This document shows positions 22,579 through 59,242 of a stretch of 64,000 bases of DNA, piece by piece (position 1 is the stretch's first letter; the number at the start of each line of letters is the position of its first letter). The translations under genes and the position numbers were made by a program. The DNA is from Candidatus Eutrophovita brisbanensis (GTDB taxonomy: Bacteria > Pseudomonadota > Gammaproteobacteria > Burkholderiales > Eutrophovitaceae). Under the pieces are notes generated by a model, which saw nothing but the letters and a program-made list of their open reading frames with translations, was not told where the DNA came from and ran no database searches. The DNA lies in NCBI GenBank assembly GCA_038147395.1, contig JAYQTM010000001.1, positions 1,885,508 through 1,949,507 on the forward strand. Reading direction: 5' to 3'.

Positions 22579-22884
22579 TCAACCCTTCAGCCCGCCAATG
22601 TCCTCGACATTGATCGATCTTAAGTTTCTGAACAACACAACCAGAATGGCAAGACCAATCGCTGACTCAGCAGCAGCAACCGTTAATATGAAAAATACAA
22701 ATACTTGTCCTGAGAGGTCATTCAGATAATGAGAAAAAGCGATGAAGTTGATGTTCACAGCAAGCAACATGAGTTCGATCGACATCAAAATGATGATGAT
22801 ATTTTTTCGATTCAAAAAGATACCGGCGATACTAATCGAGAATAAAACAGCGCCCAGAACGAGATAGTGGGAAAGCGTGATCAT
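22579..22884 (-). CDS. nuoK: NADH-quinone oxidoreductase subunit K
   Basis: 101 aa with 3 TM segments. ATGA overlap with the end of nuoJ. Confidence 0.9.
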
Positions 22885-23502
22885 TGCGACTTCTCCACTG
22901 GATCTTTTTCTACAGGCATAGAAACAATCTTGAGGCGATCTGACCGCTTTACGATAAATTGTTTGCTCGGATCAATTGCCTTGCTGTCCTTTCTCTGTCT
23001 CAAGGTCAGTGCGATTGCCGCCACGATTGCCACTAAAAGAATCACTGCGGCAAGCTCGAAAGCATAGAGATACTCGGTGTACAGCAACCGGCCGAGCTGA
23101 AGTGTGTTGCCCTCGTCAGTCATCGAGCTCGCAATCGATGGTGCTGCTGAGAAGATTTCCTCGCGGCCTCCAAGCAAAACAATCATTTCTGCAAGCAACA
23201 CTCCTGCAACAAAGAGTGCGGGTAACAAAGTAGTTCCAATAGCCTTCACGCATTTTGTTCAAGTTGATGTCTAACATCATCACGACGAACAAAAAAAGCA
23301 CCATCACAGCACCAACATAAACCAGTATCAGGGAAATCGCCAAAAACTCCGCGCGCAACATGAGCCAAATTGCAGCACATGTAAAAAATGCAAGGACGAG
23401 CGCCAGCGCAGAATGAACAGGATTTCTGGAGAAGATGACACACAGACCGGCGCCAACGATAACCGCAGAAAACACATAAAACGCAAACATCTCGTAGTCC
23501 AT
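22881..23502 (-). pseudogene. nuoJ: NADH-quinone oxidoreductase subunit J, interrupted by a 1-nt frameshift
   Basis: Two overlapping ORFs. ORF 23116-23502 is NuoJ-like up to ...MMLDINLNKMREGYWNY. ORF 22881-23249 is NuoJ-like from ...LLPALFVAGVLLAEM... to the end. The frames switch at TACTTTGTTACC (plus-strand AAA at 23227-23229). Removing one T gives WNYLLPALFV. Confidence 0.8.
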
Positions 23503-32571: not shown

Positions 32572-33336
32572 TTAATTAACTGCCGCCGAAGCTGCACGAC
32601 AAATCGCTAAAAAATCCTCCGGGTTGAGAGAAGCGCCACCGATCAACCCGCCATCAATATCCTTTTGACCGAATAATGATTCCGCATTATCCGGTTTAAC
32701 ACTTCCGCCGTAGAGAATCCGCAGGGATTCCGCCACTGACGAGTCTTTTCGCTCAACCCTCTCTCGCAAAAATCGATGAACCGCCTGAGCCTCATCAGGT
32801 TTTGCAGTTAATCCTGTGCCAATCGCCCAAACTGGCTCGTAAGCGAGTACTGACCGACCAATGCCCGCCACACCGACGCATTCGATTGCTGCTTCGAGTT
32901 GCGCGCCGACAATCTCGAATGTTGAACCGGCTTCCCGCTCTTCTAACGTCTCGCCAACGCAGATTATTGGCTGGATATCAGCACTCAAGAGCGCTTTTGC
33001 TTTAAGTCCAACAAGCTCGCTCGATTCGCCATACAAACTTCTTCTCTCAGAATGCCCCACGATCGCGTAAGACACACCAAAATCAGTCAACATAGAGGCT
33101 GAAATCTCGCCAGTATAAGCCCCACCAGCATGTTCACTGACGTTCTGCGCACCCCATTTAACCCCAGAGCCTTCCAAAATTAATTGCGTTTGCCCAAGGT
33201 ATAGAAACGGTACACAGACACCAACGTCACAGGTTTCGCCCTCGACGCCACCGACCACACCACCCAAAAGGTCAGCGTTCGGTGTAAGAGAACCGTTCAT
33301 TTTCCAGTTCCCCACGACCAAAGGTGCTCTTCCCAT
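32572..33336 (-). CDS. tpiA: triose-phosphate isomerase
   Basis: [20 protein letters not shown] and [10 protein letters not shown] motifs. Start ATG 33336 (MGRAPLVV), or possibly TTG 33342. Confidence 0.93.
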
Positions 33337-34123
33337 AAACAACGCGTTGTAAAACCCGAGATTTTATAAACAACGCGTAAAACCGCCGGCGGGAGAATTT
33401 GTAGTCTTCAGTTTTTACTGCTGGTTTAATGAAAATAGTGGTTGTCTCGTTAAATTCAATCATTTCACCCAGATACATATATGCCGTGTAATTAGATACT
33501 CTGGCTGCCTGCTGCATGTTGTGAGTCACCATGGCAATCGTGTAATCCGTGGCTAACTCAACAACAAGCTCCTCGATCTTGGCAGTTGATATCGGGTCGA
33601 GAGCCGATGTAGGCTCATCAAGCAAAAGTACCTCAGGCTTAACAGCGATTCCTCGAGCAATACAGAGCCTTTGTTGCTGCCCCCCGGACAGGCTAAGACC
33701 GCTTTGCGTCAATTTGTCTTTAACTTCATCCCACAAGGCTGCTTTTCTCAAAGCCCACTCAACGCGCTCCTCCATGTCATAAGAGCTAAGTTTTTCGTAC
33801 AACCTGACCCCGAACGATACATTTTCGAAAATTGACATGGGAAACGGCGTCGGCTTCTGAAAAACCATCCCTATTTTGGCGCGTATTTGATTAATCACCT
33901 CTCCCTCAGCCCTGTGCCCAGGATACAAGTCAAACATTCTGTTCAACGTGCGAAGCAAGGTTGACTTACCGCACCCCGATGGGCCAATAAACGCTGTTAT
34001 TTTATTTTCAGGGATAGAGAGAGATACGTCTTTGAGGCCTTGAAAATCTCCGTAAAAAAAATTGAGATTTTTAATATCAAGTTTCGCAGACTCAATCGGC
34101 GTGATGGTGGCTGGATGTGTCAT
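33272..34123 (-). CDS. pstB: phosphate ABC transporter ATP-binding protein PstB, atypical and possibly degenerate
   Basis: Walker A GPSGCGKS, signature LSGGQQQR, Walker B LLLDEP and H-loop THNM are present. About 13 residues are missing between RAEGE and RAKIGMVFQ compared with E. coli PstB. The canonical C-terminus TEDYITGR(F/Y)G-stop is replaced by [12 protein letters not shown] plus a 34-residue readthrough that overlaps tpiA by about 65 nt. Confidence 0.7.
33335..33384. repeat. imperfect direct repeat at the pstB/tpiA boundary
   Basis: ATAAACAACGCGT-TGT-AAAACC at 33335-33356 and ATAAACAACGCGT-AAAACC at 33366-33384 (period 31 nt). The first copy starts exactly at the complement of the tpiA ATG. 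Confidence 0.85.
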
Positions 34124-34152
34124 TAGTTATGCAATGTTATCGTTTTGTAGGA

Positions 34153-34989
34153 CTAAATTTGTTTCTTTCTCGTCATAGATCTTGCGATGATGGATAAAAA
34201 CAGAACTGCAAAGGTGATGAGAAGCGCTCCTACCCAGGCTAGCGACTTCCAATCTTCAAATGGACTCATCGCAAACTGAAAGATGACTACAGGTAAATTT
34301 GCCATTGGAGAATCGAGATCGGATGTCCAAAATTGATTATTTAGCGCGGTAAATAGCAATGGGGCTGTCTCTCCACTGATACGAGCGATAGCTAGTAAAA
34401 CACCGGTGGTCACGCCCGCCTTAGCAGCCCGGAGGGTGACCATAAAGATGATTTTCCATTTTGGGGCCCCCAAAGCAGCTGCCGCCTCTCTTAGGCTATT
34501 TGGCACCAATAAGAGCATGTTATCTGTCGATCGCACGATCACTGGTATGGCAATCAATGTGAGCGCGAACGCACCCGCCCAGCCCGAAAAATGTTTCACG
34601 TTGGCGACGTAGATTGCGTAGATAAACAACCCGAGCACGATGGATGGTGCAGAGAGCAAAATATCATTCACAAATCGTGTTACCGGCGTTACCCAGCCCT
34701 TTTGCCCGTACTCAGCCAAATAAATGCCTGCCATCACACCAATTGGTATCGCGATAAAGATAGCAACTGAGACCATCAACAAGCTGCCAAAGATCGCATT
34801 CAATAAGCCTCCCGACTCGCCTGGAGGTGGAGTCATTTCAGTGAAAACCGCTATCGATATGCCATCGATCCCCTTAACAACTAAGGACGATAAGATCCAG
34901 AACAGAATTCCCAAACCAAGCACCATTGCGACCATGGATAGGATAAGTCCAACCTTGTTCGTGAGTAGCCTTTTTGTATATAGATCCAT
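34153..34989 (-). CDS. pstA: phosphate ABC transporter permease PstA
   Basis: 278 aa permease with [11 protein letters not shown] (EAA loop). Confidence 0.9.
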
Positions 34990-35003
34990 AACGCACCCGC
35001 CGT

Positions 35004-35963
35004 TTAGGCTCCCTCTTTCCTGGTGACTCGTAACAGGAATAGCTTCGCAACCGACAGCACTAGAAAAGTAATTCCAAACAAAATCAGCCCTAATGTGATG
35101 AGAGCCGACTCGTGTAGCCCGCTCCCAGCCTCAGCGAACTCATTCGCCAGAATGGACGCAATACTATTTCCAGGATTAAACAATCCCGTACTGAATTCGT
35201 AAGCGTTTCCAATCACAAAAGTCACAGCCATAGTCTCACCGAGAGCCCTGCCAAGACCGAGCATAATGCCGCCGACGACCCCCGACTTCGTATACGGAAG
35301 CACAACGTGCCTAACGACCTCCCACGTAGTTGATCCAAGGCCATACGCTGACTCCTTAAGGATGGCAGGTACAACATCAAACACATCTCGCATCACTGCA
35401 GCGATGAATGGGACCACCATGAATGCGAGTATTATTCCCGCCGTAAGAACGCCAATGCCCATTGGTGGGCCATCAAATAAGGGGCCAAAAATTGGAATCG
35501 GCAACAGCCATTCTTGAAGGTAGGGCTGAACATGATCTGCGAAAAATGGAGCAAATATAAACAGGCCCCACATGCCGTAAATAATACTTGGCACAGCGGC
35601 TAAAAGCTCAATCATGGTGCCGAGTGGAGTTTTGAGTCGCGCAGGACATAACTCCGTGAGAAAAATAGCAATTCCGAAACTTAATGGGATAGCAATCAGG
35701 AGAGCGATAGCCGAAGTTACCAGTGTCCCTAATATGGGATTAAGTCCTCCGTATTGATCCGTAACGGGGTTCCAGTCCGGGCTGACTAAAAATCCTGGCC
35801 CGAATTCACGAAAAACGGGGAGCGACCCAAGAATCAGGGAACCGATAATGGCTACAAGGATTCCGAGAACGGCGATAGCAAAGAAGCGAGCGGCGCTACC
35901 AAACAATATATCTTGCCGCCTGTTCCTTATTGTGATCTTGGATGCGTCGTTGGGGTTGAGCAT
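35004..35963 (-). CDS. pstC: phosphate ABC transporter permease PstC
   Basis: 319 aa permease with [16 protein letters not shown]-type loop. Confidence 0.9.
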
Positions 35964-36034
35964 AGTATTTTGTAAGCCGCTATCTCCAAGTCTTTGAATG
36001 TTAAATCTTAGCCAACGCGTCCATTCTAAATGAA

Positions 36035-36058
36035 CTCTGGGCCCCTCAGGGCCCAGAG
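36035..36058 (-). other. intercistronic stem-loop between pstS and pstC
   Basis: CTCTGGGCCC-CTCA-GGGCCCAGAG. A perfect 10-bp GC-rich stem with a 4-nt loop and no strong T run after it on the coding strand. Confidence 0.7.
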
Positions 36059-36090
36059 CTATTCTATCTACATAAGGATGTTACTACGGT

Positions 36091-36897
36091 TTACCAAAGA
36101 GGACTTCCTGAGGCGTCTTTGATCTCACTAGCCCACTTACTTCGTATATTCTCGACCACATTCTCAGGCATCGCGACATACGACAATTCGTCAGCCATCG
36201 CCGCGCCGTTATCGAAAGCCCATGAATAAAATGTCAACGCGGCTTTGACGCGCTCCGGATTATCGGGTGCTTTATAAACGATAATGAACGACGCACCAGT
36301 AATTGGCCAACTTTGCTCACCGGGTTGGTCAGTCAAGATCACGTAGTAACCGTCCGCGCCCTCCCAATCAGCGTTCGCAGCAGCGGCAGCAAACGTCTCA
36401 GATGAGGGAGCAGCAAAAGTACCAGTTTTATTTTTCAGGAGAACGTGGTTAAGAGCATTTTTTTTGGCGTAGGCATACTCAACGTAGCCGATACCTCCTT
36501 TGATTCTCTGAATGTATGCGGCAACGCCTTCGTTACCCTTACCTCCAACACCTGTAGGCCAAGCTACCGCTTTCCCAACACCAACCTGCTCTGACCATGA
36601 CTGACTGACTTTCGCTAAATAGTCGGTAAACAAAAAAGTGGTTCCTGATCCATCTGCCCTGCGCACTACCGTAATTTTTTTATTTGGTAGCGTTATGCCT
36701 TCATTTAGGGCGGCGATTCTTGGGTCATTCCAGTTTTTGATCACCCCAAGAAATATGTCGGCTAACACTGGCCCATCTAATTTCAAATCACCGGGTTTAA
36801 AACCCTCCAAATTGACCACCGGCACTACTCCACCGATTATCGCTGGGAATTGCATCATGCCAAACTCATCCAGATCGGCTGGCTTCAGAGGAGCATT
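36091..36897 (-). pseudogene. pstS: phosphate-binding protein PstS, 5'-truncated (about 80 N-terminal codons, signal peptide and promoter absent)
   Basis: Similarity to E. coli PstS begins abruptly at (D)APL...FQFP.IGGVV and then runs collinear to the C-terminus (VVRRADGSGTTF, GIGYVEYAYA, WPITG). The ATG at 36918 used by the ORF track lies inside glmM-derived sequence. Confidence 0.8.
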
Positions 36898-37945
36898 GCA
36901 GCGCAGATACAATTCCATCCCCCGTCGTATGTTTATCGAGACAGAGTATGTGGCCCGACCCCTCCCCCCCGGTCACCCATTGCTTTTCGACTAGCTTTTC
37001 GTGGACGTAGCGATCTCCCACTGCCGAACGAACGAAATCGATGCCCAACGAATTGAGCGCATTCTCGATCGCAAGATTCGTCATTAGCGTTCCAACCACC
37101 CCTTTGCCGTCATGCGACTTGCTCCTCGCGATCACATAAAGAAGCTGATCGCCATCGAATAAGCGTCCATTCGAGTCGATCATCATCAAACGGTCTCCAT
37201 CACCATCAAAGGCGACACCAAAGTCAGCTTTTTCACTGAGCACGGTTTTAATCAACGCCTCAGGGTGCAACGCGCCACAATCCCGATTGATATTCATGCC
37301 ATCTGGCTCGGCACCAATCACGACTACCTCTGCTCCCAATTCGCGAAATACGGACGGTGCAACTTGGTACGTAGCTCCATGCGCGCAATCTAAGACTATT
37401 TTTTTTCCAGTCAAAGAAAGTGTGTCAGGAAACGTCTGCTTGCAAAATTCGACATATCGCCCAGATGCGTCAGTGACTCGGCGAGCCTTACCAGTGTCTT
37501 GTGAATAGGGAAGATCTGTAGATCGATCTAAAAAGCCCTCGATCTCGAGCTCAATAGCATCAGGTAACTTCTTGCCCTCACTCGAGAAAAACTTGATCCC
37601 ATTATCTTGATACGGATTATGTGACGCTGAGATCACGATGCCCGCGTTTAATCGTAGCGCCCGAGTGAGATAAGCCACGCCAGGGGTAGGAATTGGACCA
37701 GCTAACAAAATATCGGCCCCAGCAGCTGCGAGACCAGACTGTAAGGCCGACTCAAGCATGTACCCAGAGAGCCGAGTATCTTTGCCGATCAATACGGTTG
37801 CCTTGCCCTCCGGTTTACCACTACCCCCTTTAGCAGCGAACACTTTCCCTGCCGCAAAACCGAGCCTCACCATAAACTCCGGAGTAATGGGGTCCTTACC
37901 AACTACACCCCGAATTCCATCGGTTCCAAAAAATTTCTTGGCCAA
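36866..37945 (-). pseudogene. glmM: phosphoglucosamine mutase GlmM, 3'-truncated (about 85-90 C-terminal codons absent)
   Basis: N-terminus [13 protein letters not shown], active-site SASHNP and metal loop FDGDGDR are present. Family similarity ends at ...[11 protein letters not shown] and is followed by CSSEASRSG-stop, which is read from pstS-derived sequence. Length is 359 aa against about 445 aa. Confidence 0.8.
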
Positions 37946-57866: not shown

Positions 57867-59242
57867 CTAAGCTCTACGCCAGGTCGTTTTACCAGCGCTA
57901 TCCTCTAAAGTGATTCCTGCGGCGGTCAATTCGTCGCGCAGACGATCAGCCTCTTTAAAGTCTTTCTTGGATCGAGCTTCGTCTCGGGCGACGATCATCG
58001 CGTCAATCTCCTCAGACGACATTTCAAGGCCCTCACGAGACTGTAAAAACAGAGCGGGCTCCCGATCAAGCAGACCCAGCTCCGCCGCCAGTGCTCTTAG
58101 CAAATAAGCCAGGCTCACATCCCCGCTTCGGTTCAACTCACTGACGATATCAAACAACACGGAAATAGCCTCTGGCGTATTAAAGTCATCATCCATCGCC
58201 TCTTTGAACCGGTGTGCAAATGCGTGTTGCCAATCAATCGTCAAGGATCCTTGGGAAGGGGATCGAAATCCTTGAGAGCTGTGTACATTCGAGACAAGGC
58301 AAGACGCGCATCTTCTAAATGCTTATCCGAATAGTTTAATGGACTCCTGTAGTGCGCTCTGAGTATAAAAAACCTTAAAACTTCAGGATCAAATTTATCC
58401 AGGACTTCTCTGACAGTGAAGAAATTTCCCAAAGACTTGGACATTTTTTCGTTATCTACTCGAACGAAACCATTATGCATCCAATATTTCACAAAACCTG
58501 CACCATGGGCCCCCTCGGACTGGGCAATCTCGTTTTCGTGGTGTGGGAATTGTAAATCTTGCCCTCCACCGTGAATATCAAAGTACTTACCCAGATACCT
58601 TTCGCTCATCGCAGAGCACTCGATGTGCCACCCAGGGCGACCATCCCCCCATGGAGAGGGCCAGCTGGGCTCACCTGGCTTGGTTGTCTTCCACAAAACG
58701 AAATCCATGGGATGCTTTTTGGCCAAATCGACTTCGACGCGCTCACCCGCTCTAAGATCCTCGAGGGTCTTGCCAGATAACCGTCCATACTTTTCAAACA
58801 AAGAGACTGAGTAGTAAACATCGCCTGACTCACCCACGTATGCATATCCTTTGTTAATCAACGTTCCGATTAACTCGATCATTTGAGGGATATTCTCCGT
58901 CGCCTTAGGCTCAATGTCGGGGCGAACTACCCCGAGGGAGGCGGCGTCTTGATTCATCGCATCGATAAAACGACTCGTCAACTGCTGATATGTCTCTTCG
59001 TTATCTCGAGCTCTAGCGATAATTTTGTCGTCAATATCTGTGATATTTCGAACATAAGTGACGTCATATCCCGATGTTTCAAACCATTTCCGCACCATGT
59101 CGAACACAACCATCACTCGAGCATGACCGACGTGGCACAAGTCGTAGACTGTCATACCACAGACATACATTCGAACCGAGTTTGGCTCTATCGATTGGAA
59201 TTCTTCTTTCTGGCGGGTAAGTGTATTGAAGAGTTTCAACAT
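57867..59242 (-). pseudogene. cysS: cysteine--tRNA ligase, interrupted by a 1-nt frameshift
   Basis: ORF 58241-59242 (333 aa) carries HVGHAR and KMSKSLGN and ends ...[12 protein letters not shown]-stop. ORF 57867-58244 (125 aa, in a different frame) continues with (L)TIDWQHAFAHRFKEAMDDDFNTPEA... Together they total about 458 aa, a normal CysS length. The switch is at AAGGATCCTTGACG (58241-58250). One extra T (CCT TTG) would restore the frame. Confidence 0.8.

Follow-up and report, generated by a model that had tools for sequence, protein, structure and literature searches.

The junction between glmM and pstS in the analysed stretch of Candidatus Eutrophovita brisbanensis DNA (64 kb of contig JAYQTM010000001.1, hereafter the window, to which all coordinates refer unless another contig is named) is very probably a haplotyping or strain-collapse error in a metagenome-assembled genome (MAG) that was probably built mainly from long reads, and not a biological feature; a probability of roughly 0.85 is assigned to this reading. 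At the junction, glmM ends without its 3′ part and pstS begins without its 5′ part. The population to which the window belongs carries two unrelated versions of the block comprising the end of glmM and the pstSCAB operon, and the contig passes from the flank of one version into the interior of the other next to the position where the two versions diverge.

The minus strand of the window contains an open reading frame (ORF) of 359 aa similar to GlmM (36866..37945), which overlaps a PstS-like ORF (36091..36918) in a different frame. In alignments with near-identical loci that are intact, the junction falls at 36895/36896 (minus strand CTGCAA/TGCTCC), with one ambiguous base that amounts to 1 bp of microhomology. 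The claim of the first-pass annotation that both gene ends are missing at a single breakpoint is therefore correct, and its position was given correctly. Codons 1-350 of glmM (nt 1-1050; 36896..37945, minus strand) are colinear with intact glmM, carry the A-linked haplotype described below, and stop where the two alleles diverge. GlmM similarity is lost after codon 350, and from the next base pstS resumes at codon 79/80 and continues to its stop codon in the B subtype (36091..36895, minus strand); the PstS remnant begins with APLKPADL (codon 80). Because glmM and pstS are out of frame with each other at the junction, the GlmM chain runs into the tail CSSEASRSG and a stop codon, which are encoded by pstS-derived DNA (36866..36895, minus strand). 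Measured from the glmM start to the pstS stop, the window has 1855 nt, compared with 2503 nt in the B-type contigs L082 and L092. The missing 648 bp, a measured value that falls within the 0.6-0.7 kb estimated earlier from typical gene lengths, are made up of 300 nt from the 3′ end of glmM, the whole 112-nt spacer and 236 nt from the start of pstS.

Pfam domains PGM_PMM I, II and III were matched in the 359-aa ORF, the third only to profile position 99 of 115, and PGM_PMM_IV (PF00408) is absent. Both the SASHNP serine loop and the DGDGDR metal site of GlmM are present, and residues 1-350 match full-length homologues at 98-99% identity. The domain IV loop R-x-SGTEP-L-x-R, which reads RQSGTEPLIR in intact B-type and RRSGTEPLLR in intact A-type proteins, is missing, and the ORF does not have the four-domain (I-IV) chain of about 445-450 aa expected of GlmM. 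In the pstS ORF, the match to the PBP_like_2 profile begins only at position 81 of 267. The remnant lacks the signal peptide, the first ~78 residues and the motifs GAGATFPYP, SIGSGAG and DFGASD, all of which are found in intact B-type PstS. The missing 648 bp, the GlmM C-terminus with its domain IV loop and the PstS N-terminus were not found elsewhere in the 64-kb window. If the sequence were real, the consequences drawn in the first-pass annotation would hold, namely, a GlmM without domain IV, a PstS without signal peptide and N-terminal phosphate-binding residues, and pstCAB genes without a promoter of their own.

The locus is intact in close relatives. A protein search with the 359-aa ORF returned eight clusters at 98-99% identity, with lengths of 440-450 aa and all four PGM_PMM domains. 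About 30 contigs from relatives were fetched from ENA, JGI, NCBI and Logan by exact-protein look-ups, including those with the FolP, PstC, TpiA and NuoK of the window; their nucleotide identity to the window is 97-99%, with colinearity over 12.3-49.3 kb. All contigs that reach the locus have a glmM encoding 449 or 450 aa and a pstS encoding 346 aa, with 112 nt (B-type) or 218 nt (A-type) between them. The exact PstC of the window is encoded on at least 23 other contigs, and each returned contig that extends upstream has intact pstS and glmM. The comparison with close relatives carrying glmM-pstSCAB, which had been proposed as a check, was thereby carried out, and the fetched relatives that reach the locus have both genes at full length. 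A scan of GlmM in one genome per species gave only relatives of at most 65% identity and was uninformative on the junction.

The relatives fall into two classes, A and B, according to the block formed by the glmM 3′ end and pstSCAB, with the same flanks, 97-99% identical, in both. The A-type allele (contigs L081, L086, L087 and L102) has a different PstS, a PstC of 463 aa with DUF3708, a PstA of 436 aa with DUF3333 and a PstB of 280 aa, while the B-type allele (L082-85 and L092-101) encodes a PstS of 346 aa, a PstC of 319 aa, a PstA of 278 aa and a PstB of 261 aa. The short PstC and PstA of the B-type are E. coli-like, and those of the A-type are long forms with the two DUF domains. The alleles are 97% identical over glmM nt 1-1052 and then have no nucleotide homology until the middle of pstB; their GlmM proteins are about 99% identical at residues 1-350 and only about half identical over the last ~100 residues. 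The divergence point lies directly after GCGCTGCAAGT, at CTGCAAGT, 2 nt beyond the breakpoint of the window; in this region, A-type sequence continues into GTTATCTCTGCATTAC and intact B-type sequence into GTCCTATCCGTTTTATGC. The left exchange boundary is inside glmM, after codon ~351, and the cassettes sit between glmM and tpiA. This natural polymorphism, in which two unrelated pst operons are swapped together with the last 100 codons of glmM, is real and of a known kind. Exactly at CTGCAAGT, the short-read scaffolds L088 (GCA_038113155.1) and L089 (GCA_038111875.1), both from the same assembly series, come to an end; their ends mark a graph branch point, as produced by an assembly graph at a strain bubble.

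The junction of the window is situated at this same boundary and is also a switch of haplotype. Over the 450 nt to its left, the window differs from A-type contigs at 0-2 positions and from B-type contigs at 7-12, while the sequence to its right is B-type (4 mismatches in 805 nt to L099). Likewise, proteins identical to the FolP and TpiA of the window are encoded on A-type contigs, and proteins identical to its PstC on B-type contigs. Had a B-type genome simply suffered a deletion, the B-linked single-nucleotide polymorphisms of glmM would be present to the left of the junction; these are absent. The locus has the attributes of a chimeric assembly: two subpopulation-specific sequences exist between conserved flanks, an anomalous join is present at the edge of the variable region, the haplotype changes there, and the right edge is damaged too.

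The damage at the right edge, like the frameshifts in nuoJ and cysS described below, was not reported in the first-pass annotation. The pstB remnant (33400..34123, minus strand) has a 39-bp in-frame deletion at 33892/33893, which removes FNGRNILNKKEDV, 13 residues in a segment whose length is conserved in both alleles, and a 3-bp deletion at 33412/33413. The last 20 nt of pstB, including the stop codon, are scrambled, and the ORF continues into tpiA with a total length of 283 aa. The scrambled end of pstB and the pstB-tpiA spacer (33337..33399, minus strand) occupy 63 nt compared with 128 nt in the relatives, and the spacer is altered by ten or more small indels and by a 41-bp deletion spanning the right A/B boundary. 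Neither the 39-bp nor the 41-bp deletion has microhomology. The sequence ACGCGTTGTTTA is duplicated within 33337-33399 and forms a hairpin-capable ACGCGTTGT...ACAACGCGT. A promoter-like element, TTGACC-N18-TAAAAT, with TTGACC as the -35-like part, and the AGGGG ribosome-binding site of tpiA are kept in every relative, in both alleles, and are lost in the window, because of which gene callers choose another start for tpiA. In all, the cassette region has at least five private indel events in 3.6 kb, compared with only three private substitutions. Private substitutions are very rare overall: some 30 kb of coding sequence contains 14, of which 12 are synonymous, with none in pstC and one each in pstA, the pstS remnant and pstB.

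A sister assembly of the same series provides a second case of a damaged cassette. This locus (L114:11829-14944) is located on a 463,555-bp contig (JAYQKR010000008.1 of GCA_038142805.1, here L114). Its glmM breaks after CTGCAAG, 1 nt from the breakpoint of the window, and the sequence re-enters at pstS nt ~88, compared with ~237 in the window, with about 499 bp missing. The contig then keeps 2999-3001 nt of the same B subtype as the window (L114:11905-14903), lacks 775 bp including most of pstB, and resumes 40 nt upstream of tpiA. In the window, the retained blocks are 3003-3004 nt (33893-36895) and, after the 39-bp gap, 493 nt (33400-33892). The left boundary therefore recurs in the two assemblies while the right boundaries differ, and the ~3.0-kb blocks are offset by about 150 nt. 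Blocks of nearly equal size with shifted ends are unlike the outcome of independent mutations and like that of a procedure using fixed-size pieces. As a matter of speculation, the regularity of the ~3.0-kb and ~0.5-kb blocks may reflect an assembler overlap or polisher window parameter. The window and L114 share no lesion and therefore have no common damaged ancestor.

Smaller lesions, 1-nt indels in two essential genes, are present outside the cassette. In nuoJ, a private additional T at about 23230 (CTAC[T]TTGTT), absent from all 10 relatives compared, splits NuoJ, a protein of 206 aa in the relatives, into two pieces (23116..23502 and 22881..23249, minus strand). In cysS, a private deletion of one G at about 58262 (GATCCC[G]CTTCCC) splits the protein into 333 and 125 aa (59242 to 58241 and 58244 to 57867, minus strand, that is, 58241..59242 and 57867..58244); about 50 homologues, 97-100% identical, have an intact cysteine--tRNA ligase of 458 aa. 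Contig L114 has homopolymer indels of its own, T8 to T9 in the yhbY region and G7 to G6, which causes a frameshift inside glmM. Together, these private indels point to long-read consensus errors.

Searches for independent occurrences of the damaged sequence were negative. A 25-mer across the junction and a 26-mer across the pstB deletion had no matches in JGI metagenome contigs, a collection that holds intact relatives. The exact 359-aa, 275-aa and 283-aa products were not on record among about 15 billion proteins. The first-pass annotation had raised the case of a 359-aa GlmM conserved with this same tail; no protein ending in CSSEASRSG was present among about 5.8 billion protein clusters.

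In the proposed sequence of events, the contig would follow the A-type flank to the edge of the sequence it has in common with B and then continue within the B-type cassette, with 648 bp dropped; the other edge of the bubble would be mishandled too, giving the lesions in pstB and the scrambled region upstream of tpiA. Taken at face value, the sequence would mean that glmM, pstS, pstB, the expression of tpiA, nuoJ and cysS are all inactivated, in a lineage under strong purifying selection.

Several points weigh against an assembly error. The misjoin was deduced from sequence comparison and was not observed in reads, and the long-read origin of the source assembly, like the software step at fault, is inferred. 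The right end of the gap, at pstS nt ~237, matches no alignable A/B block and no known contig end, because of which the exact software mechanism is unexplained. The junction stands 2 nt before the last shared base and not exactly on it. In a polished consensus, neither the dense small indels before tpiA nor the duplicated 12-mer would be usual. Finally, two assemblies with one B subtype and damaged cassettes could in principle represent one real lineage.

Two specific mechanisms were considered. Alignment-guided merging of A and B assemblies is rejected: it would need an alignable A/B block at pstS nt ~237, and there is none, homology returning only in mid-pstB. A 500-bp polishing-window grid is an attractive origin for the 3.0- and 0.5-kb blocks, but it gives no account of a grid starting at the divergence point in two assemblies.

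The strongest alternative, although an unlikely one, is a real deletion or recombination in a minority genotype, in which an A-type cell took up B-type DNA and joined it by homology-facilitated illegitimate recombination or a similar process. The result would be a truncated cassette with the 3′ end of glmM cut, and the cell would have survived by means of a second glmM or a PGM/PMM paralogue, or else the genotype would be a dead end represented on a few long reads; the search for a further GlmM C-terminus covered the 64-kb window. The 1 bp of microhomology and the imperfect similarity around the join (GCGCTGCA-A vs GAGCTTCAGA) are frequent at illegitimate joins, cassette swapping is evident in the population, and the B subtype shared by the window and L114 was not seen intact elsewhere. 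However, two independent lethal events would have to fall at most 2 nt from the A/B homology boundary, an outcome with a probability of roughly 5/1350 per event if sites in glmM are hit at random, and both would also have to keep about 3.0 kb. The absence of a shared lesion leaves no common inactivating ancestor for the two contigs. In addition, the homologous anchor side at tpiA is scrambled as well, the 39-bp and 41-bp deletions have no microhomology, glmM, tpiA expression, nuoJ and cysS would all be damaged in one genome, and the junction k-mer was found nowhere else in the JGI metagenome contigs.

A related and somewhat more doubtful proposal is that the conserved GDGIVSALQ/V coding site in glmM is a genuine hotspot for the exchange of pst cassettes, and that the window and L114 represent real, abortive one-sided exchanges captured on single long molecules. 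If true, these contigs would capture failed allele replacement directly, in a wild population of marine betaproteobacteria.

The first-pass annotation had left two readings, gene loss in an eroding genome and an assembly collapse or chimeric join. The latter gains from the coincidence with the divergence point, the haplotype switch, the damaged cassette in L114 and the lack of recurrence. The former, in which the pst operon and glmM of a host-dependent organism are decaying pseudogenes, is very improbable. The clustering of lesions in one operon and the further frameshifts in the window speak for it, but all these genes are intact in relatives at 97-99% nucleotide identity, and the rarity of private substitutions, with 12 of 14 synonymous, indicates strong purifying selection. 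There is no excess of substitutions in pstC, pstA or the pstS remnant (0-1 private substitutions), no lesion is common with L114, where the breakpoints differ, and the window is as gene-dense as a free-living streamlined genome. In an old pseudogene, substitutions would have built up, and a young one would not have acquired five separate deletions. Gene loss by erosion is contradicted by the intact near-identical relatives and the strong purifying selection.

The suggestion that the short GlmM and the N-terminally short PstS are functional, conserved variants is refuted: no support for it was found, the close homologues are all 440-450 aa long with PGM_PMM_IV, no cluster has this tail, and the PstS remnant is devoid of the signal peptide and of GAGATFPYP, SIGSGAG and DFGASD.

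The genes of the locus are arranged in the order rlmE-ftsH-folP-glmM'-'pstS-pstC-pstA-pstB'-tpiA-secG-tRNA-Leu-nuoA. Between the damaged ends, pstC (35004..35963, minus strand, 319 aa) and pstA (34153..34989, minus strand, 278 aa) are intact and B-type. The coding sequence of tpiA (32572..33336, minus strand) is intact, and colinearity with all relatives is clean again from its ATG. At or near the edges of the variable cassette, short-read scaffolds of the same series break off or contain gaps. L104 and L106 end about 240 nt into tpiA. Contig L086 has 100 N at L086:10937-11036, inside the A-type pstS region, and other scaffolds of the series have gaps of 100 N or 10 N in or near the variable region. 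In another assembly of the series, B-type pstCA lies on a small contig of its own; its protein accession numbers (MEL00293xx and MEL00309xx) give no information on gene order in the source genome. Small contigs assigned to Halieaceae or Rhodospirillales bins carry B-type pstCA fragments of this organism, an indication that the cassette was mis-binned.

With an assembly artefact as the preferred explanation, the fused genes are most likely irrelevant as biology, and the locus is of interest for quality control. In this 2.08-Mb single-contig MAG, functional copies of glmM, pstS and pstB would be scored as absent, and nuoJ and cysS as broken. Metabolic reconstructions could go astray as a result, or genome reduction could be claimed in error. 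In addition, the locus illustrates cleanly how joins that do not exist arise in long contigs at a strain-variable cassette, and how contigs from the same population can expose such joins without reads.

The structure of the locus can be compared with several known systems. It resembles homology-facilitated illegitimate recombination during natural transformation in that B-type DNA is joined to A-type DNA at minimal microhomology beside a homologous flank. Unlike the products of that process, it has an unclean anchor side, a breakpoint on the homology boundary in two assemblies, a destroyed essential gene and no independent occurrence. With the deletional pseudogenisation of reduced symbionts it shares the fusion of truncated genes at a deletion junction and the loss of a promoter for the genes downstream; in contrast to that process, there is no sign of relaxed selection, no lesion is shared, and near-identical relatives are intact. 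Contig breaks at branch points of de Bruijn graphs, caused by strain variation, are represented here by L088 and L089, which stop at the last base shared by A and B, whereas the window runs across the branch via a non-existent join.

The closest parallel is provided by haplotyping errors of long-read metagenome assemblers, in which contigs are reported to combine two regions, each specific to one subpopulation and included wholly or in part, between flanks that are conserved (Trigodet et al. 2025, bioRxiv 10.1101/2025.04.22.649783). The same study described indels without read support and sequences absent from the reads, and used read clipping as a diagnostic (bioRxiv 10.1101/2025.04.22.649783). 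The present locus differs from those errors in that DNA is missing (648 bp, 39 bp, 41 bp and others) instead of both variants being concatenated. It agrees with them in that part of the region of one subpopulation is joined to the flanks of the other, with spurious and broken ORFs as the outcome.

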